Shown piece after piece: positions 12,382 to 56,956 of a stretch of DNA of 64,000 nt. Within the stretch, counting starts at the first letter, position 1. Each line of letters starts with the position of its first letter. The notes beneath the pieces were generated by a model. The model was not told where the DNA came from, searched no databases, and saw nothing but the letters and a program-made list of their open reading frames with translations. The translations under genes were made by a program, and so were the position numbers. The DNA is from an uncultured Chitinophagales bacterium (GTDB taxonomy: Bacteria > Bacteroidota > Bacteroidia > Chitinophagales > JABDMM01): NCBI GenBank assembly GCA_963991145.1, contig CAXDOZ010000001.1, positions 6,617 through 70,616 on the forward strand, in the 5' to 3' direction.

Positions 12382-12397
12382 ATCGATCAAGCTTAAG

Positions 12398-14498: not shown

Positions 14499-14499
14499 C

Positions 14500-26099: not shown

Positions 26100-26104
26100 C
26101 ACCT

Positions 26105-29142: not shown

Positions 29143-30125
29143 TGGCTGATCAGAAAAGAGCACTTGTAACAGGAGGCGGAGGTTTTATTGGGTCTCACCT
29201 GGTGAAAAAGCTGAAGAAAGAAGGGTTTTGGGTAAGAGTAGCAGACTTGAAGTATCCTGAGTTTTCTCCTACGGTGGCCGATGACTTTATGCAGGGAGAT
29301 TTGAGAGATCAGGAATTCTGCGCAAGAGTCATAGATCAACCTTTCGACCATCTTTATACCCTTGCAGCTGACATGGGTGGGGCAGGTTATCTGTTCACCG
29401 GTGAGAACGATGCTGATGTGATGCACAACTCGGCGATGATCAATCTAAACGTGGCTCATTTAGCTGTAAAGCATAATGTTGGAAGAGTATTTTACTCCTC
29501 TAGCGCCTGTATTTACCCTGAATTCAATCAGCTTGACCCAGATAATCCAAACTGCGAAGAGAGCACTGCATATCCAGCTCAACCGGATAGTGAATACGGA
29601 TGGGAAAAACTGTTCAGCGAAAGGATGTTCCTGAATTTTGCAAAGAACTATGGGCTTGATGTTAAGATTGCCCGCTTTCACAACATTTTTGGACCTGAAG
29701 GAACCTGGACAGGAGGAAAGGAAAAAGTACCGGCTGCAATGTGCAGAAAAGTGGCAGAAGCAGAAGATGGTTCTTCTATTGAGGTTTGGGGGGATGGTCT
29801 TCAAACGAGATCATTTCTTTACATCGATGAGTGCCTTGAAGGAGTATGGAACCTTATGAATAGCGACAAATCCGGACCATTCAATATTGGTTCAGAAGAG
29901 ATGGTAAGTATCAATGAGCTCGCTGAAATTGTAATTGCTATATCAGGAAAGAACCTTTCATTAGATCACATTCCTGGTCCACAAGGAGTAAGAGGAAGAA
30001 CCTCGGATAATAAGCTCATTCAGGAGCAGATCGGCTGGAAGCCAAACTATCCTCTCAAAAAAGGACTGGAGAAGACTTTCTCATGGATCAATGAGCAGGT
30101 TCATGCTCATAGTACAAAGAGTTAA
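29142..30125 (+). CDS. gme: GDP-mannose 3,5-epimerase (plant GME-type; makes GDP-L-galactose/GDP-L-gulose)
   Basis: 327 aa, colinear with Arabidopsis GME as I recall that sequence: 'LAADMGGAGY', 'SSACIYPEFNQL' (catalytic Cys), 'SEYGWEKL' (Tyr), 'RFHNIFGPEGTWTGGKEKVPAAMCRK' (Lys), 'VWGDGLQTRSFLYIDECLEGV', 'HIPGPQGVRGRTSDN'. Confidence 0.85.
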   Translation: MADQKRALVTGGGGFIGSHLVKKLKKEGFWVRVADLKYPEFSPTVADDFMQGDLRDQEFCARVIDQPFDHLYTLAADMGGAGYLFTGENDADVMHNSAMINLNVAHLAVKHNVGRVFYSSSACIYPEFNQLDPDNPNCEESTAYPAQPDSEYGWEKLFSERMFLNFAKNYGLDVKIARFHNIFGPEGTWTGGKEKVPAAMCRKVAEAEDGSSIEVWGDGLQTRSFLYIDECLEGVWNLMNSDKSGPFNIGSEEMVSINELAEIVIAISGKNLSLDHIPGPQGVRGRTSDNKLIQEQIGWKPNYPLKKGLEKTFSWINEQVHAHSTKS

Positions 30126-30126
30126 G

Positions 30127-31305
30127 ATGACAGATAAGGGAATCCTTGGACATATTTTAAGGAAGTCGACCTATATCTGGCTTCATCTTGATATGGCTTT
30201 CTGTAAGACAGTAGCTAGAGTCTACGCTGCAATTCATGCGAAGAAGCCCAAGAAAGAAATTAAAAAAATTGCTGCTGTCTGGTATTGGCCAGAGAACTTC
30301 AATTCAGACGAATTGAGATTGGCCTATTGGGGAAAGTACTTCGAGAAAGACGGCTATCAATTTGACAATTTTAAAATTCTCGATGTAAAAGAATTTGTCG
30401 AGGAATATGAGAAGGGAACCTGGCCACAGAAGTACCTTTTCTACCGAAGAAACTACCTGAGACGTTGGAGGCAATTTTTTAAAATGAAGGATTACGATGT
30501 CGTTTGGATCGATCGTGCCTTCATGCCTTTTTATCCTTTTAAGTCAGCTGTTTATGAGCCATTGATCAAAAAGATGGGTGCTCATTTGGTTATGGATACC
30601 ACAGATGCATCTGACTATGAGAATAATCCGGATCTGGTTCTCTCAACGCTATCTCAGGCAGATAGAATTACGGCCGCATTTAAAAAGCTTGTAGAGTTTT
30701 ATCAACCCAAGTATCACAATGTTACTCGTCTAAATTGGACAGTACCTATTGAAGGATATGTTGTGAAGGATAATTGGAAACTAAAGGATCCGATCATCAT
30801 TGGTTGGATGGGCAGCCCGGGTAACTTTGAGTATTTAAGAGAAACCCTGGAACAGTTAAAGGAAGTAGCGAAAGAAGTCCCATTTACTTTTAGATATATC
30901 TGCAGGATCAAGCAGGATATTGATATCCCCGGAGCAACAATAGAACATCACTATTACGGAGATGATTATCACGATATCATTGGGACATTCGATATTGGAT
31001 TGGCTCCATTTACCAAGGTGTCTTTTGCCACAGAAGGTAAGATCGGAATGAAGCATCAGGAATTTATGATCTGCAAGATTCCGCAGGTTTGTAGTCCGGT
31101 TGCGATCTCTGAGCATGCTAAACATGAGGAGCATGTCCTTATCGCAAAGGATATAAGTGACTGGAAAGGCCTTATCTTAAGATTGCTTTCCGATGAAGAT
31201 CTAAGGACCAGATTGGGCAATAACAGCCGAGAGCTATTTGATGAGCACTATAATTATGACACCTGGTATCCAACTCTGAAGGAAGTCCTCACCGATTTTG
31301 ATTAA
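30127..31305 (+). CDS. GT-B-fold glycosyltransferase (GT4/GT1-like), paralogue of the 48164-49252 gene
   Basis: 'IIIGWMGSPGNFEYLRETLEQLKEV' and 'FDIGLAPF..GKIGMKHQEFMICKIPQVCSPV' parallel 'ITIGWTGSHSTLKYL' and 'IDIGLYPL..GKSGCKTITYMSIAIPSV' in the other gene. The track start 30091 overlaps gme. ATG 30127 lies 1 nt after the gme stop. Confidence 0.7.
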   Translation: MTDKGILGHILRKSTYIWLHLDMAFCKTVARVYAAIHAKKPKKEIKKIAAVWYWPENFNSDELRLAYWGKYFEKDGYQFDNFKILDVKEFVEEYEKGTWPQKYLFYRRNYLRRWRQFFKMKDYDVVWIDRAFMPFYPFKSAVYEPLIKKMGAHLVMDTTDASDYENNPDLVLSTLSQADRITAAFKKLVEFYQPKYHNVTRLNWTVPIEGYVVKDNWKLKDPIIIGWMGSPGNFEYLRETLEQLKEVAKEVPFTFRYICRIKQDIDIPGATIEHHYYGDDYHDIIGTFDIGLAPFTKVSFATEGKIGMKHQEFMICKIPQVCSPVAISEHAKHEEHVLIAKDISDWKGLILRLLSDEDLRTRLGNNSRELFDEHYNYDTWYPTLKEVLTDFD

Positions 31306-31311
31306 GAAGTA

Positions 31312-32418
31312 ATGGCAGACCGAATCCGAGTGCTTGTATATCCAAACTGGAAACGTGGAAGCGTTTACATGAATAAGCTGGAGGAAGCTGTTGAGGAGAA
31401 TGATATTGGCCTGGACTACACGAGTTTTCACGGAGCGATCTTCCCTCTTTCTAAGCAGTACATGAAGGGCTATCATTCAGTTCTTCAAATTCATTGGGTT
31501 AGTGTGCTCTTTGCCGCAGAAGTCAGGAACCCTGTTAAATTTTGGATAAGATACATTCTGGCATATCTCGACATCTGGTACGTTAGAAATATCCTCTCTG
31601 CCAAAATTGTATGGACAGTTCACAATCTTTATTCCCATGATGCAATCAGGAAAAACCTGGACCTTCGAGCGCGTAGATTTCTTGCTAAGCAATCTGATAT
31701 CCTTTTGTTACATGGACCCAGCGCTATCCCTCTGGTGACAGAAGCCTATAAAGTCGATAAGTCGAAATGCGTTTGTATTCCTCATGGAAATCAAAAAGGG
31801 GCCTTCCCCATGGAGATCTCCAAATTCGACGCAAGAGAAAAGCTCCAGATCGGTCAAAATAAAAAGGTGCTTCTGTTCTTCGGAACTTTAAGAAAGTATA
31901 AAGGGGTTGAGGAATTGATAGAGGCTTTTAAGTCAATTGATGATGAGAACCTCTTCCTGCTGATTGCAGGAAAGTGCCGAGACGAGTCTTACAGAAAAGA
32001 ATTAATGGGAATGGCAGATGATCGCACCTTGATCACTGACTCCTTTGTTCCGATTGATGAGGTTCAGGTATATATGGCTGCCGCGGATATTGTGGTCTTA
32101 CCGTTTAAAGAGATCCTCACTTCAGGATCGCTCTTGCTGGCAATGACCTTTGGAAAAATGATTGTGGCACCGAGGATGGGTACACTCCCGGATTATCTTC
32201 TGCCAGAAGGAGGTATTCTTTATGATGAGAAGAATGAAAACTTGAAAATTGCCTTGAACAGGGCAATGGAAATGGATACTGAGAAAGCGGGTGACTTTAA
32301 TAAAGAGAAAGTTGATCTATTTGACTGGGACAGAATTGGCGACTCAGTTGCCGATTGGTATAGAAAGCTGATCGATTCAAATAACCCTCATCCGAAAAAG
32401 AAGAATTGGTTCCAGTGA
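31312..32418 (+). CDS. GT4-family glycosyltransferase
   Basis: 368 aa with 'KKVLLFFGTLRKYKGVEELIEAF', 'LLIAGKC' and 'ADIVVLPFKEILTSGSLLLAMTFGKMIVAPRMG'. Confidence 0.85.
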   Translation: MADRIRVLVYPNWKRGSVYMNKLEEAVEENDIGLDYTSFHGAIFPLSKQYMKGYHSVLQIHWVSVLFAAEVRNPVKFWIRYILAYLDIWYVRNILSAKIVWTVHNLYSHDAIRKNLDLRARRFLAKQSDILLLHGPSAIPLVTEAYKVDKSKCVCIPHGNQKGAFPMEISKFDAREKLQIGQNKKVLLFFGTLRKYKGVEELIEAFKSIDDENLFLLIAGKCRDESYRKELMGMADDRTLITDSFVPIDEVQVYMAAADIVVLPFKEILTSGSLLLAMTFGKMIVAPRMGTLPDYLLPEGGILYDEKNENLKIALNRAMEMDTEKAGDFNKEKVDLFDWDRIGDSVADWYRKLIDSNNPHPKKKNWFQ

Positions 32419-33365
32419 TTGAAGGATTGAAATATCGGGTCTCTAAAATTCAGGGGAAAATTGAAGCCAAAAAGATCGCTTCAGAGTTCAAAGACCAGAG
32501 TTTGAGAACTCCCCCGGTTTTTATTTTGGGTGCCCCAAGAACTGGCAGTACGATCCTATACCAATTACTAAGTTCACAGGGCGATTTTTTTTATTTCAAT
32601 AATTATCTGGCTAAGAATCATCAAACTCCTGCAAAAGCTTTAAAGACCTTTGCAAGTAAAGGAGGACAATTTAAGCACGACTCTTTTAACTCCAAATTCG
32701 GAGAGACTTCAGGAGACAATGCCCCAAGTGAGGCTGGATACTTTTGGTACAGATGGATCCCAGAAGGACATCATGAATTGAAAAAATCCGATCTAAGTAA
32801 AGATGACCTGGACCAGATCTCGTCCTACTTTAAATTCTTTGAATCCCAATCTCAACTCCCGATCCTCATTAAGAACCTAAACATGGGATTGAGGATGGAT
32901 CTGATAAGGTCAATTCACCCGCAAGCAAGAATCATTCACATTGTAAGGAATACCCTTGACAACTCAAGGTCAATACTGAAGGGAAGAATTAAGTATGGGA
33001 ATTCAGAGGATTTTTGGTTTGGATCAAAACCCAATGAATGGCAGGACTGGCAAAATGGCTCAGTAGCCGAGCAAATCGTGGGACAGATTGAGTGGATGAA
33101 TAATTCTATCCTGAAGGGTGCCAAACAGTTAGGTGATGAGTGTTATTTGCGAATCCGATATGAGGATCTGGTGAAGGACACTGATTCCACGATCAAAGAG
33201 ATCAAGAACTTTTTAAAGAATGGAAACATAGAAATTGAGCATGGATTTCCATCTTTGAGCAAAGAATCCCAAAATGAAGAGCAGCTTGAGCTCTCTGATT
33301 TTGATAAAGAAGTAATTGAATTGGTTAAGAGTAAGGGTACAGAAAGCAATACCCTTTATCTATAG
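32415..33365 (+). CDS. PAPS-dependent sulfotransferase (4 of 4)
   Basis: Motifs 'VFILGAPRTGSTILYQLL' (5'-PSB), 'ARIIHIVRNTLDNSRSIL' (3'-PB) and 'LRIRYEDLVKD'. The track start is TTG 32406. GTG 32415 gives a GTGA overlap with the upstream stop. Confidence 0.8.
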   Translation: MIEGLKYRVSKIQGKIEAKKIASEFKDQSLRTPPVFILGAPRTGSTILYQLLSSQGDFFYFNNYLAKNHQTPAKALKTFASKGGQFKHDSFNSKFGETSGDNAPSEAGYFWYRWIPEGHHELKKSDLSKDDLDQISSYFKFFESQSQLPILIKNLNMGLRMDLIRSIHPQARIIHIVRNTLDNSRSILKGRIKYGNSEDFWFGSKPNEWQDWQNGSVAEQIVGQIEWMNNSILKGAKQLGDECYLRIRYEDLVKDTDSTIKEIKNFLKNGNIEIEHGFPSLSKESQNEEQLELSDFDKEVIELVKSKGTESNTLYL

Positions 33366-33382
33366 CTAATATCACCCCAAGT

Positions 33383-34324
33383 ATGAGCAGCCAGAACAGC
33401 CCCAAAAACTGGAAAGAAGAATACATCAATAGTGCCAGGGATGATTGGTATCTCTATCATCAACCATACTATTTAGATGCAGTTACAAATGGAAACTGGG
33501 ATGTAGTTAGATTCCCGGAAGAGGGTCAGGCAAAGGCTTTTTTACCCTATGTGACGAGGAAAGAGAGAGATGGCAATGCTATTGTCATGCCTCCCTACAC
33601 TGCATTTCTAGGCCCTGTTTTCCTGGAAGATCTTAGTACCTCCAAACAATATGCTGCCATTGAAGGCCTGTTGGATAATTTGCCTGATTGTCCTTTCATT
33701 GAGCAGAGATGGAATCCATCGATTGAAAATTGGCTGCCTGCTTATTGGAAGAATTTCGAACAGCAGACCAGGTACACCTACATTATTGACTGCCCCGGAG
33801 ATGAAGAACAGATCTGGAAAGAGATCTCATCCAAGAAGCGAAATGCGATCCGTAAGGCAGAAAAGAATCTGACAATTGAAGAGGCGCCCAAAGATGTACT
33901 CCTAGAAAAGACATCATGGATGGCCTTCCTGAATCACGATAAGAATGCCCTTTCAAATATCATTGATACTCTTGGTGAGCGAGGTCAAATGAAGATCCTG
34001 GGAACAAAGAATGATCAGGGAGAGTGGAGTAATCTGGCCCTGTTTGTTTGGGATAAGAGCAGGATGTACTATTTGGTTGGCTTGAGAGATAATTCTAAAA
34101 AGGACGATGAAGGGATGAATCTTCTCCTTTGGACAGCCATGAAAGATGCACCTGAAGGAATTGAGATATTCGATTTCGAAGGAAGCATGATCAAAGGAAT
34201 TGAGACCTTCTTCAGATTGTTGGGAGGGAAGCCGCAAGCATATTTTCAGATCTCAAAGTCATTTTCCAGATATCGTAACTTTAGAAAAGGAGTTTCATTC
34301 CTGCTCAAAGCACTAAAGGGTTAA
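33383..34324 (+). CDS. FemAB/Acetyltransf_6-like GNAT-fold acyl- or aminoacyl-transferase (VimA-like candidate)
   Basis: 313 aa with 'IWKEISSKKRNAIRKAEKN' (typical of the FemAB-related/CelD-like family), 'LALFVWDKSRMYYLVG' and 'NLLLWTAMKDA'. Confidence 0.6.
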   Translation: MSSQNSPKNWKEEYINSARDDWYLYHQPYYLDAVTNGNWDVVRFPEEGQAKAFLPYVTRKERDGNAIVMPPYTAFLGPVFLEDLSTSKQYAAIEGLLDNLPDCPFIEQRWNPSIENWLPAYWKNFEQQTRYTYIIDCPGDEEQIWKEISSKKRNAIRKAEKNLTIEEAPKDVLLEKTSWMAFLNHDKNALSNIIDTLGERGQMKILGTKNDQGEWSNLALFVWDKSRMYYLVGLRDNSKKDDEGMNLLLWTAMKDAPEGIEIFDFEGSMIKGIETFFRLLGGKPQAYFQISKSFSRYRNFRKGVSFLLKALKG

Positions 34325-35598
34325 TGTCTGATCTTTCAACCGAACAATTATCTATCTACCTCAAAGCCCAAACCTTTGAATGGCTGGTCAGCTATTCTAA
34401 TGAAACTGAATGGCAGGTAATTGTTGAAGGAGATTCAATTTCCATCGGCCTGAAAGGCCAGATCTATAAGGAGGATTTGCCAGAGAAAATACCTGACAGA
34501 AATCAAATCACCTCTCTTTTAAATTCCTTAGAATCCAATCAAAGCTTAAAGCAGGATCTTCCATTTATCTCTTTGCTGGATTTCTTTTGGCGTGAACAGT
34601 ATTTAAAGAAACCCCTTCAACTTGATGCTCATAAACGAGTTTCTAAAGATTCAATTCAACCCGAATATCTTGAAATTCTAGGCTGGCCGATCTTTGATAT
34701 TCTAATGCACTCTCTGCTGGATCAATTTGGAGTAAAGCCTCAAAGGGGAAAGACTGTTACGCTAAGCTGTGATTATGATTTCGCCAATATCTGGAATCAG
34801 CTGAACGAGTTATCTGCGGCTAAGCAATTATTGAGAATAGGCGCAGGAAAAGGTCTTAGCGCTTTTTATAAGTCATTTCAGTCAATGTCAAATGCTGAGA
34901 AAGAATTGAAATGGAATGGCTCTTTGAACAGAGAAATGTTTTCACCAGATCTGGATCTGGGAAATGAAATTGAAATAAATCGGATTGCATTCCTCCTAAT
35001 TCATCAGACCAATAAAAATTTCGATCCAAAGAATAATACTAGCAGCAATTCATATTCAAACTTCCTATCTCAACTAGCTAAAGAGGGAATTGAAGTTGGT
35101 CTTCATCCGGGATATGATACCAGATATCAGGGAGAGGAAAGTATGATTCTTCAAAAGGATATGCTCCAATCAATTTCTTCCTCAATTATTCAGAAGTTGA
35201 GATTCCATTATTTGAATGCTGATCTCCCTCATGACCTGCGTTTGTTGGAGGCTGCAGGAATTAAGGAGGATTATTCATTTGCTTTTGCAGACACCCTCCT
35301 CTTTAGATCGGGAAGGTCCACTCCCTGCAGGTACTGGGATTTTGAATTAGAAAGAATGATTGATGTCCTTTCTGTTCCTCTTACAATAATGGATACAACA
35401 TTGGTAGAATACTCAGCTGGAAATGGTAACATGAGCAGCCATTTAGAGAGAGCCTGGACCTTTGGGCAATCCATAAATATTCTGTTTCACAATCAATACT
35501 TTGACCCCTTTATCGAATACCCCAAAGCCGCCGAGGTTCAATCATTGTATTCCCAATGCATAGAACACTTACAAGCTTTAAGTTCAGGCAACATTTGA
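34324..35598 (+). CDS. Conserved hypothetical protein (candidate VimE-like/divergent sugar deacetylase; function not established)
   Basis: 424 aa, with its start overlapping the upstream stop (TAATG). There are no TM segments. Possible metal or acid-base patches are 'TLSCDYDF' and 'VGLHPGYDT'. I recognise no firm family signature. Confidence 0.45.
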   Translation: MSDLSTEQLSIYLKAQTFEWLVSYSNETEWQVIVEGDSISIGLKGQIYKEDLPEKIPDRNQITSLLNSLESNQSLKQDLPFISLLDFFWREQYLKKPLQLDAHKRVSKDSIQPEYLEILGWPIFDILMHSLLDQFGVKPQRGKTVTLSCDYDFANIWNQLNELSAAKQLLRIGAGKGLSAFYKSFQSMSNAEKELKWNGSLNREMFSPDLDLGNEIEINRIAFLLIHQTNKNFDPKNNTSSNSYSNFLSQLAKEGIEVGLHPGYDTRYQGEESMILQKDMLQSISSSIIQKLRFHYLNADLPHDLRLLEAAGIKEDYSFAFADTLLFRSGRSTPCRYWDFELERMIDVLSVPLTIMDTTLVEYSAGNGNMSSHLERAWTFGQSINILFHNQYFDPFIEYPKAAEVQSLYSQCIEHLQALSSGNI

Positions 35599-35636
35599 GG
35601 GTCAATTTTTTCTAAGTTTGCACCAAATTTGAATTG

Positions 35637-37484
35637 ATGTCGAAGAATTATACTCTTGGTATCCATATTGGACACGACTCTACGGTTTGCCTTATTGACG
35701 AACAGGGTGAAGTAATTTACGCTGTAGCTGAAGAGAGAGTAACAAGAATAAAGTATCATCTGGGTTTCCCTTATGATGGAGTCAAAGAAATGCTTAGATA
35801 CACCGGGGTTGATCCTAAGGATATCAAGTACGTTGCTGGCTCGACAAAGCGTCTGGTCTTCCACGGACAGGATGCCTATAATGACCTTCTATTTACCGAG
35901 GACAAAGACAAACTGAGATCAGTAGATTTCGGTAATCAGGCTTTGAACCCTTCTCCTGTGGGGAGAGTAATGGAAGTGATATCCGCAAATCTTGGCAATC
36001 AGAAAGCCTTAAGTCCAGAGGAATTCAAGTCAAAGAGCGAAGCATTGACTTTAGAGATGATGAGCGATGCTTTGAAGAAAGTTGGACTTGGCCATGCCGA
36101 GATAAAGACCTTTGATCATCACCTTTGCCATGCTGCAAGTGCATATTACTGCTCTGGCCAGGGTGATGCCCTGATCATTACTATGGATGGAGCAGGAGAT
36201 GGTCTCTGTGCTTCAGCAAATGTGATCAAAGACGGCAAGGTTACAAGGATCTCTGGCGCAAGCGCCGATGTCTCACCTGGTCGATTGTACTCTGAAGTAA
36301 CAGGCTTTGTTGGATTCAAAAGACTGCGTCACGAAGGAAAGATCACCGGTTTGGCAGCTTACGGAGATCCGGATAGATTTTATGCTGATTTCAAGAAGTT
36401 CCTTCGCTTTAATCCCGAGACTGAGCAATTTGATTTTGATATACCTAAGCGCTCCGCCCTTGCATCAAAATGGAAAACTCTGAACAGAGTTGTTGCAGGA
36501 ATTCAAACTGGCCGTCCACATATTGCTGAATTCTCAGATCACCTTTCAAAAATTGCAGATCCAAAAGATGATATGCAGGATTTGGCAGCTGCAGCTCAAA
36601 GGGTGCTGGAAGAAATTTCAGTCGAATACGTAAAGCATTTCCTACAAAAATCTACCAGTAAGAAAGTACTTCTCGCTGGAGGTGTTTTTGCCAATGTCCG
36701 GGTTAACCAATTGATAGCTGAGATTCCCGGAGTTGAATTCGTCTACATCCATCAGAACATGGGTGATGGAGGATTGGCTTTAGGTGCAGCTATGCTTGAT
36801 TACTATGAAGAGAATGGTCGACCTTATAATGGATACCAACCATTAAATGTATACTTCGGTAGCGCATACACAGATGATGAAATTGAAAAAGACATCATCG
36901 AATCAGGCATCCCTTATGAGAAGTTTGACAATGTAGAGAAGAAGATCGCTGAACTGATCCACGATGGAAAGGTAATCGGACGATTCAATGGCGGAATGGA
37001 ATACGGTCCAAGAGCTCTTGGGAACAGAACCATTATGGCCCGCACTACGGATAGAAGCATCAATGACTGGCTGAACAAGCAGCTGAACAGAACTGAATTC
37101 ATGCCTTTCGCTCCAAGTGTTTACGGTCCGGAAGCAGGCAATATACTTGTTGATTACGATCGCAAGGTGGCCAACTTTGCTGATCGCTTTATGACCATTA
37201 CTTATCACGTAATTCCTGAGTGGAGAGATAAATTGCAGGCAGTAACTCACGTAGATGGAACTGCTCGTCCGCAAGTGGTTTGGGAAGAAGGGAATCCTTC
37301 TTACTACAAGATCCTGGAGGAGTATTTCAAATTGAGTGGAATACCTGCAGTGATCAACACCAGCTTTAATATGCACGAAGAGCCAATCGTTCGTACTCCT
37401 GCAGAAGGTATCAAGTCTTATAATCAGGGTTGTCTTGATTACTTAGCTATTGGTAGCTTTATAGTAGGCCAGCCAAGATCCTAA
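35637..37484 (+). CDS. NodU/CmcH-family carbamoyltransferase
   Basis: About 615 aa with 'YTLGIHIGHDSTVCLIDEQGEVIYAVAEERVTRIKY', 'DHHLCHAASAYY', 'ITMDGAGDG' and the C-terminal 'THVDGTARPQVV', 'VINTSFNMHEEPIV'. The track start TTG 35634 is immediately followed by ATG 35637. Confidence 0.9.
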   Translation: MSKNYTLGIHIGHDSTVCLIDEQGEVIYAVAEERVTRIKYHLGFPYDGVKEMLRYTGVDPKDIKYVAGSTKRLVFHGQDAYNDLLFTEDKDKLRSVDFGNQALNPSPVGRVMEVISANLGNQKALSPEEFKSKSEALTLEMMSDALKKVGLGHAEIKTFDHHLCHAASAYYCSGQGDALIITMDGAGDGLCASANVIKDGKVTRISGASADVSPGRLYSEVTGFVGFKRLRHEGKITGLAAYGDPDRFYADFKKFLRFNPETEQFDFDIPKRSALASKWKTLNRVVAGIQTGRPHIAEFSDHLSKIADPKDDMQDLAAAAQRVLEEISVEYVKHFLQKSTSKKVLLAGGVFANVRVNQLIAEIPGVEFVYIHQNMGDGGLALGAAMLDYYEENGRPYNGYQPLNVYFGSAYTDDEIEKDIIESGIPYEKFDNVEKKIAELIHDGKVIGRFNGGMEYGPRALGNRTIMARTTDRSINDWLNKQLNRTEFMPFAPSVYGPEAGNILVDYDRKVANFADRFMTITYHVIPEWRDKLQAVTHVDGTARPQVVWEEGNPSYYKILEEYFKLSGIPAVINTSFNMHEEPIVRTPAEGIKSYNQGCLDYLAIGSFIVGQPRS

Positions 37485-38029
37485 TGCTTAAGCAGCTTAA
37501 AGAGATTTACTACGAGAATGAGGTTTACAGATTTCTGATTAACCTGATTTTCCTTGTAGGACTTTATGAGCTGGCTATCTACATCTTTTCAATTATTCCC
37601 GGATTCTACTACTGGGATCTATTCCATCTGAAAGTAATTTACAACGGAGTTGATATTGCAGAATGGGTGCTTTCATTAATGGGATACGAGCTGGGCGAAT
37701 TTGACAATCAGCAGTATTTCCAAATTATTGGAGGTAGTGTTCTAAAGGCTGGTAAGCCTTGTTCAGGAGTAAACCTGATGGCTTATTATACCATCATCAT
37801 TCTTGCTTACCCAGGTACTATTAAGAGCAAGATGATCTTCATTCCTGTTGGTATTCTCCTGATCCATTTGGTCAATGTTGGTCGCTATGTAGCACTGGCA
37901 TTATCCGACCTGTACACCAAAGAGTATTTCGAATTACATCATCATGTTATCTTCAAAGCAGTAGCCTACATACTGATATTTATTTTCTGGCTGGTGTATG
38001 TAAAGGTGAACTCAAGAGCGAAAAGTTAA
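37484..38029 (+). CDS. Exosortase/archaeosortase-family polytopic membrane protein (short, XrtF-like)
   Basis: 181 aa with ~5 TM segments. It carries an ordered candidate Cys-Arg-His triad: 'GKPCSGVNLM', 'HLVNVGRYVAL', 'ELHHHVIFK'. The size matches the short Bacteroidota exosortase class. TAATG overlap with the carbamoyltransferase stop. Confidence 0.6.
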   Translation: MLKQLKEIYYENEVYRFLINLIFLVGLYELAIYIFSIIPGFYYWDLFHLKVIYNGVDIAEWVLSLMGYELGEFDNQQYFQIIGGSVLKAGKPCSGVNLMAYYTIIILAYPGTIKSKMIFIPVGILLIHLVNVGRYVALALSDLYTKEYFELHHHVIFKAVAYILIFIFWLVYVKVNSRAKS

Positions 38030-38039
38030 GCTCAGGAAA

Positions 38040-39332
38040 ATGGAACCGGTTTTAATTCTATCCTACTTCTATCCTCCATGCAATCTAACTGCATCACAGC
38101 GCACAGATGCATGGGTGAGGTACTTTCCTGAATTTGGCCTTGAGCCGATTTTAATTACCCGCAACTGGGACATCCCGATAAAGAACCAGTACGATATTAA
38201 TCTCCCTACAGGAGAGAAAGAAAGGGTCGAGAAGCTTGATATTGGTGAAGTTCATTACCTGCCATTCAAGGGAAACTTAAGAGACAGGATTCAGGCCAAG
38301 CACGGTCCGGATAGCAAGAAACTCATTCGAAGACTTTTGACGATGTGGGAGCTTTTTGCCCAGAATTATACAAATTCAGCTATCCCGTATAACAACATGC
38401 TGGATAAAGCTCGCGAGATCTTAAAGGCTAGACCAGAGATCAAAAAGCTCATCGTGAGCACGAATCCTTATCAGCAATTTGCCTTCGCCTATCAACTTAA
38501 GAAAGAGTTTCCGAGACTTGAGTGGTATGCTGATTACCGAGATGATTGGACAACAAGAGAACTTAATGCCCAATCGGGAACGCTATTTAAGATCATTCGA
38601 TCCATTGAAGCTAAAAGTGAAAAGAAGTGGTTATCAAACTCCACTGGGATCATTTCGGTTACAGAGGTCCTAACGGACCGAATTTCCAGGTTTCTCAATA
38701 AGCCGGGATTCACTGCCCTCAATGGTTTTTTTGAAGAAGACTTCACTGAACTGAGTAGTCAGAACAAGTCTGATTCTTTTGTTTTCAACTATACCGGTTA
38801 TCTCTACAATGATCAACCTGTAGAGCAGGTGACAGAGGCTTTTAAGAAATTGATTGAAAAGTATAGTGGAATGATAGATATCGTATTTCGCTTTCTCGGA
38901 ACTGCCTATCACCCTCCATCAAAAGAGCGTATACTTTTAGCGGCAAACGGTATCGAATCCAATATGGATGTAACGGAGAGGATCTCGCGCCAGGAGTGTC
39001 TTCAATTCGAAGCTGATGCAGATGCATTTATCATGATGCCATACATCGGGCATAAGGGAATACCCGGCTCCAAGCTCTATCAATATTTGGGGCACAATAA
39101 ACCGATCATTCTTTATCCTTCCGATGATGATATCATTGAAAGAACAATTAAAGACGCTAATTCCGGCTTTGTTTGTCGCAGTGAAGAGGAGTTCATTGAG
39201 CAGTGCTCAAGACTCATTGACCATAAGATCGAGAGCGGAAGCAATTTAAAACTGGACTCTCATCCCGAGCTCTATTCGCGCCGTTATTCTACGAAGCAAA
39301 TAGCTGAGCTACTCAAGGGTTCAAATAGCTGA
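38040..39332 (+). CDS. GT-B-fold glycosyltransferase (GT4-like; VimF-like candidate)
   Basis: 430 aa. The N-terminus 'VLILSYFYPPCNLTASQRTDAWVRYFPEFGLEPILITRN' is typical of GT4-like EPS transferases. The C-terminal region has 'ADAFIMMPYIGHKGIPGSKLYQYLGHNKPII'. Confidence 0.65.
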   Translation: MEPVLILSYFYPPCNLTASQRTDAWVRYFPEFGLEPILITRNWDIPIKNQYDINLPTGEKERVEKLDIGEVHYLPFKGNLRDRIQAKHGPDSKKLIRRLLTMWELFAQNYTNSAIPYNNMLDKAREILKARPEIKKLIVSTNPYQQFAFAYQLKKEFPRLEWYADYRDDWTTRELNAQSGTLFKIIRSIEAKSEKKWLSNSTGIISVTEVLTDRISRFLNKPGFTALNGFFEEDFTELSSQNKSDSFVFNYTGYLYNDQPVEQVTEAFKKLIEKYSGMIDIVFRFLGTAYHPPSKERILLAANGIESNMDVTERISRQECLQFEADADAFIMMPYIGHKGIPGSKLYQYLGHNKPIILYPSDDDIIERTIKDANSGFVCRSEEEFIEQCSRLIDHKIESGSNLKLDSHPELYSRRYSTKQIAELLKGSNS

Positions 39333-39345
39333 ATATATTTGCAGG

Positions 39346-40440
39346 ATGAAACGCATCCTTACTTGCGTTGGAACTCGCCCCAACCTCATTAAGATCTCTA
39401 AGCTTCAAAGCTGTATTTCCAATTACGATAATCTAGAGCATAAGCTTCTGCATACCGGTCAGCACTTTGATCATCAAATGAATGAGATCTTCTTTAAACA
39501 GCTTGGGATGAAGGAGCCTGATGTCTTTCTGAATATTCAGGGCTCCGGGCAAATTCAGGTGATCGCAGAGATCATGAAGGCTTTTGAGAAGGAGCTTCTG
39601 GAGATCAAACCTGATCTGGTATTGGTGCCAGGAGATGTGAATAGTTCTCTTGCCTGTGCACTCGTTGCCCAGCGACATGGAATTCCGGTTGGGCACATTG
39701 AGAGCGGATTGCGCTCAGGTGATATGACTATGCCCGAAGAGGTAAACAGGATCTTGATCGATGAGCTGAGTTCGATCTTTTTCATCACAGAGAAATCAGG
39801 TCAGGAAAATCTGGAGAAGCTTGGGAAAGATAAGAGCAGTCTTGTCTTCACGGGAAATACAATGATTGACAGCCTTGAATTAAGTAAGGAAATGATTGCT
39901 CAGTCATCTGTATTGGATGAACTGAAGCTAAAGCCTAAAGAATATGCTTTGGTGACTTTTCACCGTCCGCAGAATGTAGATAGACCTGAGGATCTTCAAA
40001 AGGTCATCGACATTCTCAAAATGGCTGCAAACAAGATCCATGTTGTCTTTCCAATGCACCCAAGAACGAGAAAGAACCTGGAGCAATTCGGCATGCAGGC
40101 AGAGCTGGACCACCCCAACATAACCACAGTTGGACCGCTCGGTTACATTGATTTTATGTCTTTGATCCAGAATTCAAGACTTGTACTTACTGATTCAGGA
40201 GGTGTTCAGGAAGAGACTACCTATCTGGAAGTTCCATGTTTGACCGTGCGTCCAAACACTGAAAGACCTATCACCATTGAGCTTGGAACCAATACTTTGG
40301 TAAATCTGGATGTCGATAGAATAAGCTCATTGATTGACGATATCATCCAAGGATCTTATAAGTCGGGAAGCATTCCTCCAATGTGGGATGGGAATGCCAC
40401 TGAACGTATGGTAAAAGCCATAAATGATTTCCTTTCCTAA
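39346..40440 (+). CDS. UDP-N-acetylglucosamine-type 2-epimerase (WecB/WbpI family)
   Basis: 364 aa with 'ILTCVGTRPNLIKISKL', 'HIESGLRSGDMTMPEEVNRILID' and 'LTDSGGVQEETTYLEVPCLTVRPNTERP'. Confidence 0.9.
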   Translation: MKRILTCVGTRPNLIKISKLQSCISNYDNLEHKLLHTGQHFDHQMNEIFFKQLGMKEPDVFLNIQGSGQIQVIAEIMKAFEKELLEIKPDLVLVPGDVNSSLACALVAQRHGIPVGHIESGLRSGDMTMPEEVNRILIDELSSIFFITEKSGQENLEKLGKDKSSLVFTGNTMIDSLELSKEMIAQSSVLDELKLKPKEYALVTFHRPQNVDRPEDLQKVIDILKMAANKIHVVFPMHPRTRKNLEQFGMQAELDHPNITTVGPLGYIDFMSLIQNSRLVLTDSGGVQEETTYLEVPCLTVRPNTERPITIELGTNTLVNLDVDRISSLIDDIIQGSYKSGSIPPMWDGNATERMVKAINDFLS

Positions 40441-40522
40441 GCGAATTTATCCTCGCTATTTGCCTATCTTGCGTACCTTGAAATTTCAATGTTTATAAGC
40501 CTTTCGCAAGTCTAAAGCGCCT

Positions 40523-41656
40523 ATGAAACCAATTAGAATGGTCGATCTTGAAGGACAATATCTCAAGATCAAAGAGGAGATCGATTCAGCGATCCAGGAA
40601 GTAATAGATTCCACAATTTATATTGGAGGAGAACAAGTGAAATCATTTGGCCAGGAACTGGCCGATTACTGTAATGTTCCTCATGTAATTCCATGCGCGA
40701 ATGGTACGGATGCCCTTCAAATTGCAATGATGGCTCTTGACCTTCAGCCGGGTGATGAGGTGATCCTTCCGGTTTGGACCTATGTTGCCACAGCAGAGGT
40801 CATTGCTTTATTAAGACTTAAGCCTGTCTTTGTCGATGTTGAGCCTGATTACTTCAATATTGATCCAAATAAGATCGAGGAGCTGATCACCGATCGTACC
40901 AGATGCATCGTACCCGTTCACCTTTACGGTCAGTGCGCTGATATGGAGCCGATACTAAGAATTGCTCAAAAGCATCAGTTGTATGTGATTGAGGATACCG
41001 CTCAGGCAATTGGAGCTGATTACACCTTTTCAGATGGTGACACCATGAAAGCCGGCACCATGAGCCAGGTAGGAACAACATCATTCTTCCCTTCGAAGAA
41101 TCTTGGTTGCTATGGCGACGGCGGGGCCATGATCGTTCCGGATGATGGACTTGCTGCTCAGATCAGGATTGTAGCAAACCACGGTCAAACAAGAAGATAT
41201 TATCACGATTTCATTGGTGTGAATAGCAGACTAGATGCCATTCAAGCCGCAGTTCTAAGACAGAAACTTCCTCATTTGGATGAGTATGCAGCTGCCAGGA
41301 ATAAAGTAGCAAGCTCTTATGATGAAGCATTCGCTGATATCGATAGATTGATTACTCCAAAGAGAGATCCTAAATCAACCCACGTATTCCATCAATACAC
41401 GATGAAAACAAGTGGCATCGATAGAAATCATATGCAAAGTTGGTTGGCTGAGAAGGAAGTTCCTTCGATGATCTACTACCCGGTTCCACTTCATAAGCAG
41501 AAAGCCTATGAAATGTACAATACTGATGGTAGAGACTTTGAGGTGTCGAACGACCTGGCCGATAGAGTGATCAGCTTGCCGGTTCACACCGAAATGCAGG
41601 ATGATCAATTAGCTCACATTATTGATTGCGTGCAGGAGTACTTTAAAACTCATTAA
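40523..41656 (+). CDS. wbpE: UDP-2-acetamido-2-deoxy-3-oxo-glucuronate aminotransferase (WbpE-like, DegT family)
   Basis: 377 aa with '[36 protein letters not shown]', '[16 protein letters not shown]' and '[18 protein letters not shown]'. Confidence 0.85.
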
Positions 41657-41657
41657 T

Positions 41658-42245
41658 ATGTCTCAAGACTTTTTCGCCCACGAAACAGCAGTAATTGACG
41701 AAGGATCCGAGATCGGCGCAGGAACGAAGATCTGGCACTTTAGTCATGTAATGCCTAATTGTAAGATCGGTGAGAAGTGCAATATTGGTCAGAATGTAGT
41801 TATCTCACCTGAAGTGATTCTTGGCAAGAATGTGAAAGTCCAGAACAACGTATCCATCTACACCGGAGTGATTTGTGAAGACGATGTTTTCTTAGGCCCA
41901 AGCATGGTATTTACCAATATTGTCAATCCAAGATCCGGAGTTGTTCGAAGAGGTCAATACACCAAAACAGTAGTGAAGCACGGAGCCAGTATCGGAGCGA
42001 ATGCGACCATAGTTTGTGGACATGATATTGGAAAATTTGCATTTATCGGAGCTGGAGCGGTAGTTACAAAAGAGGTACCTGCCTACGCTTTGGTAGTTGG
42101 AAATCCCGCGAAGCAAATTGGATGGATGAGCGAATTCGGCCATCGTCTGGACTTTGATGAAAATAACATAGCCGTATGCGAGGAAAGCAATGAACGGTAT
42201 ATCTTGGAAAATAATACAGTAAGGAAACTGCCTGCTGAAAATTAA
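41658..42245 (+). CDS. wbpD: UDP-2-acetamido-3-amino-2,3-dideoxy-glucuronate N-acetyltransferase (WbpD-like, hexapeptide)
   Basis: '[43 protein letters not shown]' and '[16 protein letters not shown]'. The track start 41622 overlaps wbpE. ATG 41658 lies 1 nt after the wbpE stop. Confidence 0.85.
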
Positions 42246-42249
42246 AGAG

Positions 42250-43230
42250 ATGAAGAATTTCGTACTGATTGGAGCTGCCGGGTATATCGCCCCAAGACAT
42301 TATAAAGCAATCAAGGAAACTGATAATAAACTTCTGGCCGCGCTAGATCGCACAGATAGCGTAGGTATCATTGATAGCTTTTTCCCTAAGGCTGATTTCT
42401 TTGTAGAGTTTGAGCGATTCGATCGCCATGTTGAGAAACTAAGGAGAAACGGTACTCATATCGATTACACTACTGTATGTACACCTAATTATCTCCACGA
42501 TGCGCACATTCGATTTGGACTGCGAAACAAATCTGACGTGATCTGCGAGAAGCCACTTGTGCTTAATCCATGGAATATCGATGCCCTGAAAGATATCGAG
42601 GAGGAGACTGGCCAGAAAGTCTACAATATCCTTCAACTGAGACTTCATGAAAGCATCATTGCCCTTAAAAAGAAGGTAGACGAAGGTCCAAAGGATAAGA
42701 TCTATGATGTTGACCTTACCTACATTACCTCCCGAGGACATTGGTACTACACTTCCTGGAAGGGCGATCTAAAAAAATCTGGCGGTATCGCCACAAATAT
42801 TGGCGTTCACTTCTACGATATGCTGGGTTACATTTTTGGAGACCTGAAAGAGAATATCGTTCATGTTCACACGCATGATCGCGCTGCGGGTTATCTCGAG
42901 TTTGAAAGAGCTCGCGTAAGGTGGTTCCTGAGCATTAATGCTGATACTCTTCCTCAGGAAGTTAAAGATGAAGGGCTAACCACTTTCAGAAGTCTAACAA
43001 TGGAAGGAGAAGAAGTAGAATTCTCAAAAGGCTTCACAGATCTTCATACCAGAAGTTATGAAGCGATCTTAAATGGAAATGGCTATGGACTGGATGAGGC
43101 TTATCCTTCAATCAATATTGTGCATGGAATTCGCCATGCTGAGCCAGTGGGACTCAAGGGAGAATATCACCCCTTTGCTGCTTTAGCGACGGAAAAACAT
43201 CCTTTTTCCATTAAGCCGAAATCTAATTAG
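42250..43230 (+). CDS. wbpB: UDP-N-acetylglucosaminuronate 3-dehydrogenase (WbpB-like, Gfo/Idh/MocA)
   Basis: 326 aa. 'MKNFVLIGAAGYIAPRHYKAIKETDNKLLAALDRTDSVGIIDS', 'CTPNYLH' and 'VICEKPLVLNP..YNILQLRLH' closely parallel P. aeruginosa WbpB as I recall it. Confidence 0.88.
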   Translation: MKNFVLIGAAGYIAPRHYKAIKETDNKLLAALDRTDSVGIIDSFFPKADFFVEFERFDRHVEKLRRNGTHIDYTTVCTPNYLHDAHIRFGLRNKSDVICEKPLVLNPWNIDALKDIEEETGQKVYNILQLRLHESIIALKKKVDEGPKDKIYDVDLTYITSRGHWYYTSWKGDLKKSGGIATNIGVHFYDMLGYIFGDLKENIVHVHTHDRAAGYLEFERARVRWFLSINADTLPQEVKDEGLTTFRSLTMEGEEVEFSKGFTDLHTRSYEAILNGNGYGLDEAYPSINIVHGIRHAEPVGLKGEYHPFAALATEKHPFSIKPKSN

Positions 43231-43232
43231 AG

Positions 43233-45080
43233 ATGTGCGGGATCGCAGGATTCGTCCTTAAAAACTGCGACAACTCAAAAGAGCTGATTGATGGAATGAC
43301 ATCGGCTCTATCACACAGAGGCCCTGATGCACAGGGAACTTATCTGGATGGAGATCTGGCTTTTGGCCATCGACGATTAAGTATTCTTGACCTTAGAGAT
43401 TCTGCCAATCAGCCCATGCATTCTGAGGATGGGCGATATACAATGGTCTTCAATGGCGAGGTCTACAATTTCCAGGAAATTGCCACTGAGCTCGGTTCTG
43501 AAATGCAAACCACTGGCGACTCAGAAGTGATCCTGAAAGCATTTCAGAAATGGGGTCCGGATTGTCTCCAAAGGTTCAATGGGATGTTTTCATTGGCTAT
43601 TTGGGACAGAGAAGAACAGTCGTTATTCATTGCTCGTGATAGAATTGGAATTAAACCATTGTATGTCTACCAGCAAGATGGCGAAATAGCCTTCGCTTCA
43701 GAGTTAAAAAGTTTTGGTGCTTGCGCACCGATTAAAGAAAAGCTGAGCATTGATCACGAAGCCATCTATCACTATCTCTATCTGAGCTTTATTCCTGCTC
43801 CATATTCTGCTTATAAGCAGATCAGAAAATTCCCCAAAGGCTCATACGGCATCTTTAAGAATGGGGAATTAAGTATTCAAAGCTATTGGAATCTCGAAGA
43901 TCAAATTGATGGGAAACTCATAAGCGATGAGAGATCTGCGATCGAGCAGCTTGATGAAGCGCTTCAAAAATCTATCAGTTACAGAATGATCAGTGATGTT
44001 CCATTTGGAGCATTTCTTTCAGGTGGAACCGATAGCTCAACTGTTTGCGCGGTAGCTCAGGCATGCTCAGATAAGAATTTAAAAACCTTCTCCATCGGTT
44101 TTAAGGAGAGCAAGTTCAATGAAGCTCCTTTTGCCAAAGAGGTAGCCAAAGCAATTGGAACCGAGCATACTGAGTTCATGCTTTCTGAAATGGATGCGCT
44201 GGATATGTTTCCCCAGATCCTTGATACCTACGACGAGCCATTTGCAGATAGCTCTTCAATTCCTACAATGCTGGTTTCAAAGCTTGCAAGAAAGGATGTT
44301 ACCGTTGTCCTTACCGGTGATGGGGGCGATGAGCTTTTCCATGGTTATGGATCATATAATTGGGCTCAGCGAATTCAAAATCCTCTTTTAAGAGCAGGGA
44401 GAAAACTGATCGGACCGGCAATGTCTTTAGCCGGTGAGCGATTTGAACGGGCCGGAAAGCTGATCAACTACTCAGATAAAAATAGGCTCAAGAGCCACAT
44501 CTTCTCTCAGGAACAATACGCTTTTACTGATAAGGAGCTTTCTGAGATGTGGAATGGAAGGGGTGAAATTAAATTGGATGAGCTTGTAAAGTCCTCCAAA
44601 AGAGACTTGAGTCCTGTAGAAGAACAGGCCCTTTTTGATCTCCGATATTATATGCCTGATGATTTATTGGTCAAAGTAGATAGAGCCAGCATGCTTACTG
44701 CCCTGGAAGCAAGAGTGCCAATTTTGGACCACCATGTGGTAAGCCTTGCATTGAATATCGATCCCAGTTTAAAGATCAAAAATGGCGATTCAAAGTGGGT
44801 CCTGAAGCAGGTGCTTTACAGGTATCTCCCGGAATCTCTTTTTGATCGCCCTAAATGGGGATTTGGAATGCCATTGGTAAACTGGCTCAAAGGCCCGCTA
44901 TCAGGCTGGATCGACCTGTATCTATCCGATGAGATCGTGGAAGAAGCAGGTCTGGTGAACTTGCAATTTGTTAAAGCTCTGCGGACTTCTTTTTTTGAGG
45001 GTAAGACATATCTTTACCACCGCTTATGGCTGCTGATACTGCTACACAAGTGGTATAGCGAAACTAGTTTGGTAAAATGA
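43233..45080 (+). CDS. Glutamine-hydrolysing asparagine-synthase-family amidotransferase (WbpS-like; probable uronic acid to uronamide)
   Basis: 615 aa with the Ntn glutaminase start 'MCGIAGFV', 'GHRRLSILD', the PP-loop 'FLSGGTDSS' and 'LTGDGGDELF'. Its context is directly after wbpB. Confidence 0.8.
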   Translation: MCGIAGFVLKNCDNSKELIDGMTSALSHRGPDAQGTYLDGDLAFGHRRLSILDLRDSANQPMHSEDGRYTMVFNGEVYNFQEIATELGSEMQTTGDSEVILKAFQKWGPDCLQRFNGMFSLAIWDREEQSLFIARDRIGIKPLYVYQQDGEIAFASELKSFGACAPIKEKLSIDHEAIYHYLYLSFIPAPYSAYKQIRKFPKGSYGIFKNGELSIQSYWNLEDQIDGKLISDERSAIEQLDEALQKSISYRMISDVPFGAFLSGGTDSSTVCAVAQACSDKNLKTFSIGFKESKFNEAPFAKEVAKAIGTEHTEFMLSEMDALDMFPQILDTYDEPFADSSSIPTMLVSKLARKDVTVVLTGDGGDELFHGYGSYNWAQRIQNPLLRAGRKLIGPAMSLAGERFERAGKLINYSDKNRLKSHIFSQEQYAFTDKELSEMWNGRGEIKLDELVKSSKRDLSPVEEQALFDLRYYMPDDLLVKVDRASMLTALEARVPILDHHVVSLALNIDPSLKIKNGDSKWVLKQVLYRYLPESLFDRPKWGFGMPLVNWLKGPLSGWIDLYLSDEIVEEAGLVNLQFVKALRTSFFEGKTYLYHRLWLLILLHKWYSETSLVK

Positions 45081-48162: not shown

Positions 48163-48163
48163 C

Positions 48164-49252: not shown

Positions 49253-49324
49253 CAAAGCCTGCCTTTAATGTTTTATTAAGTTTTGGGATGTCATTTTATT
49301 CTATTTTAGCCGCCTGAAACCCCT

Positions 49325-54461: not shown

Positions 54462-54473
54462 AGACTTAGGAAC

Positions 54474-56954: not shown

Positions 56955-56956
56955 TC

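Follow-up and report, generated by a model that had tools for sequence, protein, structure and literature searches.

A stretch of 64,000 nt from an uncultured Chitinophagales bacterium (contig CAXDOZ010000001.1; the whole stretch is hereafter called the window) carries a 181-aa exosortase-family gene (37484..38029, plus strand) in the middle of a plus-strand glycan operon of about 39 kb (11527-50254). The sequence of the protein marks it as a genuine member of the exosortase/archaeosortase family that lies outside every curated subfamily. An initial annotation had pointed to an exosortase-like gene at this place, and that observation is confirmed; what is new is an orphan clade, apparently derived from XrtX-like enzymes, that has become fixed inside a Wbp/Vim-like glycan module. 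In particular, the substrate and partner genes that flank the relatives of this enzyme are missing from the window, and the arrangement of the genes around it recurs in three other metagenome loci. We tentatively propose that the enzyme is a Cys93-dependent endopeptidase/transpeptidase that would join proteins encoded outside the window to the amine-bearing sugar of the operon, a reading that we regard as somewhat short of probable.

Membership in the family follows from the NCBIfam exosortase/archaeosortase signature TIGR04178, which the protein passes with 58.4 bits against a cutoff of 23 (E = 6.8e-16), as had been expected. The best-scoring subfamily is XrtX (NF046081), at 107 bits against a cutoff of 170; true XrtX proteins, which are among the nearest named relatives of the window exosortase, score 176-213 bits on the same model. 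The protein also fails the models for XrtY (NF046083, 62.2 bits against 160), XrtF (TIGR04128, 52.6 bits against 90) and Pfam EpsH (PF09721, 20.0 bits against a gathering score of 25.7). The initial annotation had called it XrtF-like and had placed it in a short class without a known sorting signal. Because the TIGR04128 score falls under its cutoff, and with no partner gene found in the window, the XrtF identity is rejected; the nearest family is XrtX, for which a sorting signal (PID-CTERM, NF046080) and a partner (NF046082) have both been curated.

The reading frame extends from an ATG at 37484-37486 to its own TAA at 38027-38029. The TAA of the 616-aa upstream open reading frame (ORF; stop at 37482-37484) overlaps this ATG as TAATG, seen in the raw sequence as cctaatgctt, and a gap of 10 nt separates the exosortase stop from the next ATG at 38040. 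This overlap and gap, together with a polytopic 181-aa product bearing PCSG, NVGR and HHH in that order, had all been described beforehand, and the sequence bears them out. Cys93, the putative catalytic nucleophile (TGT, 37760-37762), lies in PCSG (residues 92-95); Arg134 (CGC, 37883-37885) ends NVGR (residues 131-134), with Asn131 three residues before it; and the HHH run consists of His152, His153 and His154 (37937-37945), of which His153 aligns with the conserved His of the family, found within FNHxY in XrtX. Cys, Arg and His form the proposed catalytic triad of exosortases (Haft 2023, 10.1101/2023.06.07.544157). An alignment of 40 sequences from the nearest relatives (A2), with which the predicted triad lines up, shows no exception to Cys93 or Asn131 and retains Arg134 and His153 in at least 90% of its members, while the five closest sequences (alignment A3, comprising the clade of the window exosortase and the protein cluster P0005) keep all four residues unchanged. 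Only the clade has the HHH run, P0005 having NHH, and two further periplasmic motifs, FYYWDL and NGVDxAEW, are clade-specific as well.

The AlphaFold2 model of the protein has a mean predicted local distance difference test score of 94 and a predicted template modelling score of 0.87, and combined with hydropathy it gives helices at residues 13-37, 42-65 (amphipathic), 96-108, 113-144 and 149-180. Lysines and arginines are clustered in the N-terminus, in the loop at 110-116 and in the C-terminal tail. The model suggests a polytopic membrane protein with a cytoplasmic N-terminus, four spans, and a periplasmic amphipathic helix and beta-hairpin. Because the positive charges cluster at these three places, Cys93, at the periplasmic end of the second transmembrane helix, is predicted to lie near the periplasmic face together with Arg134 and His153. 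The Protein Data Bank (PDB) returned no match by sequence or by fold, the top Foldseek E-value being 0.39.

The gene is not set apart from its surroundings. Its GC content and its GC content at third codon positions are similar to those of the adjoining genes, and a recent horizontal insertion is rejected because both values match. No promoter or terminator signal isolates the gene, neither kind of signal is enriched between the operon genes, and Rfam gives zero matches within the window. Moreover, its position is conserved. Loci L008 (exosortase 58% identical) and L016 (49%) have the same succession of carbamoyltransferase, exosortase and GT4-like glycosyltransferase. A third locus, L009, has an exosortase (10001-10558) that is only 33% identical, and it shares with the window a glycan module (30091..51567 of the window) of about 15 orthologous neighbours in the same order, as determined by BLASTP. 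This order is GT4, GT4, sulfotransferase, FemAB-like, deacetylase, carbamoyltransferase, exosortase, GT4-like and, after a Wbp-like block, AsnB, epimerase, GT4, methyltransferase, glycosyltransferase and RmlD-like. L009 differs from the window in that the GT4-like and exosortase genes are swapped and the WecB-to-WbpB block is missing. In L008 and L016 the carbamoyltransferase gene immediately precedes the exosortase, in L009 a single gene separates the two, and the GT4-like gene adjoins the exosortase in all four loci. Between the window and L009 the neighbours are 39-80% identical (FemAB-like 52%, deacetylase 39%, AsnB 52%). The stop and start codons overlap or abut as TAATG in the window, TGATG in L008 and TAATG in L009, where the exosortase stop overlaps the start of the AsnB ortholog. 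A link to the glycan module is proposed because this neighbourhood of carbamoyltransferase, exosortase and GT4-like genes and the stop/start coupling recur across loci; L009 suggests a functional tie between exosortase and module in either case, be its exosortase orthologous or independently recruited. Two glycosyltransferase genes of L009 are fragmented (13405-13713 with 13796-14635, and 15541-16631) relative to their window orthologs at 46011-47255 and 48125-49252; these splits are probably assembly frameshifts, because the contig name indicates 2x coverage.

The clade is small. When 1.84 billion representative proteins were searched exhaustively with a profile, 1754 hits came back, and only two clusters among them, that of the window protein itself and P0005, reached E <= 1e-30; true XrtX proteins with 189-200 bits are among the hits that rank next. 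Neighbour-joining recovers the window clade with 100% bootstrap support and places P0041 as the next outgroup. The clade motif [EQ]Y[FM]x[LI][HN]HH[FVY][IV]FK, searched as a degenerate 36-nt pattern, had zero hits in 185,579 species-representative genomes and one in the JGI metagenome set, L010, which is non-syntenic and encodes a different short exosortase. DNA patterns from alignments A1 and A3 gave chance matches only, at least about 600 stretches. The L010 gene (6829-7452, 207 aa) has no PID-CTERM ORF upstream and follows genes that, judged by eye from their translations, resemble a D-aminoacyl-tRNA deacylase (Dtd) and MazG; orphan short exosortases thus occur in other contexts as well.

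The relatives of the clade present a different picture. Seven of their loci were read (L005, L006, L007, L011, L012, L013 and L014), and in all seven the exosortase is immediately preceded by a small ORF whose product ends in a [CN][IV]PIDGG motif, a transmembrane helix and a basic tail; in each of the six whose contig reaches past the exosortase, a gene for a protein of 132-165 aa lies directly downstream. The substrate genes that were tested are named PID-CTERM by NCBIfam (NF046080; PF28310), and all three downstream genes tested fit NF046082, the model of the XrtX-associated membrane protein, with one score above the cutoff. The XrtX system is known from curated models only, because a literature search found no paper on PID-CTERM, XrtX or XrtY in this sense. 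Because the nearest outgroup in the tree, P0041, whose locus is counted among the seven, has a PID-CTERM ORF upstream, the PID cassette is likely the ancestral state and the cassette-free clade derived. Canonical XrtX cassettes border Wzc, UpxY (NusG) and Wzm/Wzt polysaccharide loci in L006, L011 and L012.

Further features of these cassettes were noted along the way. The PID-CTERM substrates are ~60-90 aa long, with a signal peptide, a Gly/Pro-rich stretch and usually CW(x)PPC directly before [IV]PIDGG. Their ORFs are located at 9788-9967 in L005, ~9760-9985 (plus strand) in L006, 8484-8717 and 8883-9125 in L007, 4905-5183 in L011, 6971-7189 in L012 and 1-147 in L014; the gene in L006 was missed or mis-stranded by the gene caller. 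In four independent loci (L006, L007, L011 and L012), glyA, encoding serine hydroxymethyltransferase, directly follows the cassette of PID-CTERM, XrtX and partner genes. A divergent Wzc-like kinase gene stands directly before the cassette in L006, L011 and L012, with UpxY-like NusG and Wzm/Wzt genes beyond, and L007 has its Wzc-like gene further upstream.

No such cassette accompanies the window exosortase. The absence of a PEP-CTERM-type protein and of a small partner gene, remarked on in the initial annotation, holds within the 64 kb by motif, homolog and small-ORF scans. In particular, neither P[ILV]DGG nor the looser [PA][ILVM][DEN]GG occurs in the six frames of the window, and three XrtX partners and three PID-CTERM proteins used as queries (hmmsearch, phmmer) found no significant homolog in it. 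A marginal partner match at 31237-31476 on the minus strand (E = 0.0023) was dismissed as antisense within a glycosyltransferase gene. A scan of C-terminal tails of window ORFs of at least 80 aa found no tripartite sorting signal, and among those of 35-200 aa none has a signal peptide together with a C-terminal transmembrane helix and a basic tail. No internal intergenic gap in the window exceeds 145 nt, the downstream neighbour of the exosortase is a 430-aa GT4-like protein and not the XrtX partner, and every small membrane ORF of the window was assigned to something other than that partner. Neither PID-CTERM nor partner genes were found in the window, L008, L009 or the readable part of L016; in L009 the stretch without a substrate or partner gene is 19 kb.

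The genes around the exosortase, all on the plus strand, are largely of sugar-modifying types, and those for the FemAB-like protein, the VimE-like deacetylase and the AsnB/WbpS-like amidotransferase are conserved alongside it. The FemAB-superfamily (VimA-like) protein, a putative aminoacyl/acyl transferase (33383..34324), has a single NCBIfam hit, to the XrtA-associated FemAB family TIGR03019 (E = 1.5e-7, 30.8 bits against a cutoff of 260), with weaker matches to Pfam FemAB (E = 0.0027) and to the PDB entry FemX 6snr (E = 0.077). The putative sugar N-deacetylase of CE4 type (34324..35598) matches VimE (NF053580) in its C-terminal half only, residues 207-392 (E = 5.9e-21; 74.5 bits, with the cutoff at 440). 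The NodU/CmcH-type carbamoyltransferase (35634..37484) has Pfam Carbam_trans_N and Carbam_trans_C domains, and its NodU match (E = 1.4e-30) is far under the curated cutoff. Downstream of the exosortase, the 430-aa GT4-like (GT-B) glycosyltransferase (38040..39332) matches Pfam Glycos_transf_1 at E = 4.7e-4, under the gathering score, and has no NCBIfam hit; its homologs carry PF00534 or PF13692. Next come, by family-level matches, a WecB 2-epimerase, a DegT aminotransferase, a hexapeptide acetyltransferase and a GFO/IDH/MocA oxidoreductase (39346..43230), of which wecB scores 307.8 bits, above its cutoff. This block resembles WbpI/WbpE/WbpD/WbpB, and from their sequences the four enzymes together could make a 2,3-diamino-uronic sugar. 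Among NCBIfam models, the AsnB/WbpS-type amidotransferase (43233..45080) best matches the one for the amidotransferase of XrtA/PEP-CTERM systems, TIGR03108, with 514 bits where the cutoff is 817. A Wzm/Wzt ABC exporter heads the operon (11527..13702; Pfam ABC2_membrane, ABC_tran and Wzt_C), and beyond its end lie genes for a Wza-like exporter, a Wzc-like tyrosine autokinase and a WecA/MraY-family initiating transferase (53667..58072), together with a GT4 gene on the same strand. The glycosyltransferase models stp2 and stp3 (143.7 bits against 409 and 42.4 against 442) and the exporter model TIGR03027 (33.8 against 180) are all matched under cutoff. These hits, with TIGR03019, TIGR03108 and the presence of Wza and Wzc, agree with the earlier remark that the accessory set resembles that of XrtA-type exopolysaccharide loci. 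The accompanying description of the flanking genes as linking-sugar enzymes of type IX secretion systems (T9SS) is too strong, since the resemblance is at superfamily level, VimE scores 74.5 against 440 bits, and WbpA is missing among the genes scanned.

The substrate, acceptor and chemistry that we infer for the enzyme would fit together as follows. The ancestor would have been an XrtX-like enzyme in a three-gene cassette with a small PID-CTERM substrate and a partner of ~130-165 aa, and in the window clade only the exosortase would remain, now as a conserved gene within a polysaccharide operon, to which it is coupled in translation. The enzyme types of the operon could make a diamino-uronic(amide) sugar, to which, after de-N-acetylation, the FemAB-like enzyme would add an amino acid or an acyl group. 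The glycan would be assembled on a lipid carrier and exported via Wzm/Wzt or Wza/Wzc. The exosortase, presumably an active intramembrane Cys enzyme, would then remove the C-terminal anchor from at least one protein whose gene lies outside the window, with a thioester at Cys93 as the intermediate. This would be resolved by the modified sugar, through its free amine, on the lipid-linked glycan in the periplasm, leaving the protein amide-linked to the polymer. There is a precedent in Porphyromonas gingivalis, where a deacetylase, a FemAB-like protein and an amidotransferase build the amine-bearing linking sugar used by a sortase-type enzyme (PMC7468200). The acceptor idea is not new, because Veith et al. 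(2020), who noted the same trio beside proteobacterial exosortase (XrtA) genes, published as a speculation that it makes the exosortase acceptor (PMC7468200); to call such a role undescribed, as had been done, was an overstatement. What this locus adds is a case from the Bacteroidota in which the exosortase is minimal and cassette-free.

Several observations weigh against the proposed ligation. No substrate was identified in the search of the 64-kb window, and no WbpA-type UDP-GlcNAc 6-dehydrogenase turned up among the window genes scanned; a few operon genes are without any family match. The FemAB-like and VimE-like assignments are distant (30.8/260 and 74.5/440 bits). The exosortase is the most diverged module gene between the window and L009 (33% identity versus 39-80%), with its catalytic residues invariant, and P0005 is sister to the window clade at 34% bootstrap only. 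Because at least 261 homologs of the GT4-like neighbour exist at ~40% identity, against the two exosortase clusters, most related glycan modules probably lack the enzyme, which would make it an accessory and not a core biosynthetic step. Further, no exosortase has a known acceptor, and transpeptidation in one step is unproven even for ArtA (10.1101/2023.06.07.544157). A rival reading is an ordinary XrtX-type enzyme, whose PID-CTERM-like substrates, and possibly partner, would be encoded elsewhere, whose acceptor would be a lipid or something else, and whose place in the operon would reflect co-regulation with exopolysaccharide synthesis. This is possible, though we doubt it. The choice of XrtX as best-scoring subfamily agrees with it, as does the rarity of the exosortase beside the GT4-like family, which suits an add-on role; canonical cassettes also edge polysaccharide loci (L006, L011 and L012), so that the association with exopolysaccharide would be general for the family, and both ArtA and rhombosortase use lipid-type acceptors (PMC7468200; 10.1101/2023.06.07.544157). 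However, the substrate gene is adjacent in seven of seven relatives, an adjacency that the window clade has lost, and a coupled place among sugar-modifying genes, kept in four loci down to 33% identity, is hardly explained by co-regulation alone.

At the other extreme, the enzyme might have no protein substrate at all and act on an aminoacyl or peptidyl substituent of the glycan, for example by cross-linking chains or transferring the polymer from its carrier to an amine acceptor, as a dedicated step of glycan processing. The missing genes fit this reading: no substrate or partner gene is present in the 64 kb or in the 19 kb of L009, and the partner gene of six relatives is gone. The position of the gene amid those for sugar-modifying enzymes, with stop and start codons that overlap, and the clade-specific periplasmic motifs FYYWDL, NGVDxAEW and HHH, are consistent with this too. 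To our knowledge, however, no member of the exosortase family acts on a non-protein substrate, and this lack of a precedent, the many related glycan modules that seem to manage without the enzyme, and a divergence to 33% that suits co-evolution with a variable protein signal better than with a conserved sugar group make it unlikely. We think it similarly improbable, when stated in its wider form, that a cassette-free exosortase has turned into a glycan-pathway enzyme, either with the aminoacylated diamino-uronic sugar of the operon as its acceptor or acting directly on the aminoacyl/peptidyl substituent without a protein substrate. The initial annotation favoured a link to glycan-anchored proteins secreted by the T9SS, in which the exosortase would work on or with such cargo, for example by preparing or handling the linking-sugar glycolipid used by PorU. 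A 1885-aa protein with a Por_Secre_tail domain is encoded next to the operon, VimE-like, FemAB-like and WbpS-like genes are present, and Flavobacterium johnsoniae mutants in xrtF and its partner gene share biofilm and colonisation phenotypes with porU and porZ mutants (PMC10936215). The link is nevertheless unsupported, because the Vim-like genes are distant, WbpA is missing among the scanned genes and PorU acts at the outer membrane, whereas the exosortase is in the inner membrane. Moreover, the best or only matches of the Vim-like genes are to XrtA-associated families, and nothing beyond the neighbouring cargo gene ties the exosortase to the T9SS, so that this role is very unlikely. Least credible is the idea that the operon merely carries what is left of an XrtX cassette, decaying or without catalytic activity. 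Although the gene is the most diverged of the module and its product scores under every subfamily cutoff, five contigs and four divergent loci all have an unbroken frame, the clade together with P0005 shows no change at Cys93, Asn131, Arg134 or His153, the structure is modelled with confidence, and the translational coupling is kept.

Ligation of proteins to the sugar of the operon would matter beyond this locus, as the acceptor of exosortases and the reason for their residence in exopolysaccharide loci are still unknown after almost twenty years. The window offers a minimal exosortase apart from substrate and partner genes, amid enzyme types that build the T9SS linking sugar. If the link is functional, the locus would be a compact genetic system in which to test the published speculation of ligation to amino-acid-modified sugars, and if the sugar of the operon is indeed the acceptor, it would be the first defined acceptor for any exosortase. 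If the link is not functional, the gene would be another unclassified short exosortase in an exopolysaccharide operon of an uncultured bacterium. As far as the sequences tell, the conserved arrangement in three other loci and the contrast with the cassettes of the relatives strengthen the case made initially: its family assignment, its operon coupling and its missing substrate and partner stand; its XrtF label is wrong, its T9SS tie is unsupported and its claim of an undescribed role is overstated.

The rest of the operon contains additional decorating enzymes. Four sulfotransferase-family genes (in 13686-15348, 26045-26971 and 32406-33365) include three with significant Pfam matches and a fourth, at 13686-14498, just under the gathering score; the same operon encodes the carbamoyltransferase, two methyltransferases, a formyltransferase and a PIG-L deacetylase. 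The product of the operon is probably a heavily decorated, sulfated glycan. On the minus strand, a gene for a 438-aa polytopic membrane protein with ~9 hydrophobic segments (50251..51567) closes the module; the protein has no match in Pfam or NCBIfam, DUF2142 matches its L009 ortholog weakly, and it may be a GT-C-type or polymerase/ligase-like enzyme. At the other end, divergent from the glycan operon with ~27 nt between the annotated start codons, lies the gene for the 1885-aa protein (5842-11499, minus strand), which has multiple PKD domains and the Por_Secre_tail T9SS C-terminal sorting domain. By this domain, the host is identified as a T9SS-bearing member of the Bacteroidota, and the protein could be a cargo anchored to the glycan of the operon.

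Among known systems, the XrtX system is the closest in its ~180-aa architecture, its Cys, Arg and His residues, its Bacteroidota hosts and its association with Wzc and Wzm/Wzt loci. The window gene differs from it in lying inside an operon instead of a stand-alone cassette, in scoring 107 against 170 bits, and in having no PID-CTERM or partner gene within 64 kb. The XrtF pair of F. johnsoniae (Fjoh_1448/1449) likewise includes a short Bacteroidota exosortase, and its substrates are unknown (PMC10936215), but the window gene has no exosortase F system-associated protein beside it. A further short exosortase, XrtY (NF046083), is presumably, to go by the model names, defined together with XrtY-associated glycosyltransferases (NF046085). 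It offers a curated precedent for a short exosortase with neighbouring glycosyltransferases; in contrast, the GT4-like protein adjacent to the window exosortase has no NCBIfam hit, and the XYAG1 model gives 51.8 against 400 bits on a different, distant glycosyltransferase of the window.

The XrtA/EpsH loci, reportedly described by Haft in 2006 as exopolysaccharide loci with PEP-CTERM proteins, share with the window the same types of accessory enzyme (FemAB, deacetylase, AsnB-type amidotransferase, stp2/stp3 GT4s and Wza/Wzc), and XrtA-associated models are the best or only NCBIfam hit for several window proteins. These accessory hits are all under their equivalog cutoffs and indicate resemblance, not membership; moreover, the window enzyme is a minimal protein of 181 aa, its host belongs to the Bacteroidota and not the Proteobacteria, and no PEP-CTERM protein is visible in the window. 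The PorU and Wbp/Vim systems of P. gingivalis and Tannerella forsythia also employ a deacetylase, a FemAB-like protein and sometimes an amidotransferase to make an amine-bearing sugar that accepts a protein C-terminus (PMC7468200), and the window operon has WbpB/E/D/I-type enzymes at family level. PorU, however, is an outer-membrane transpeptidase of the gingipain family, unrelated to the inner-membrane exosortase, and the Vim-like genes of the window are distant. In Gram-positive bacteria, sortase A is a Cys/His/Arg transpeptidase that uses the pentaglycine amine built on lipid II by FemABX. Its fold, cell envelope and acceptor are unrelated to those considered here, and the likeness is one of analogy, lying in the same chemistry and in an amine installed by FemAB on a lipid-linked glycan precursor. 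By that analogy, the logic proposed for the window exosortase would parallel the use of FemABX and lipid II by sortase A, and that of VimA, VimE and WbpS by PorU.

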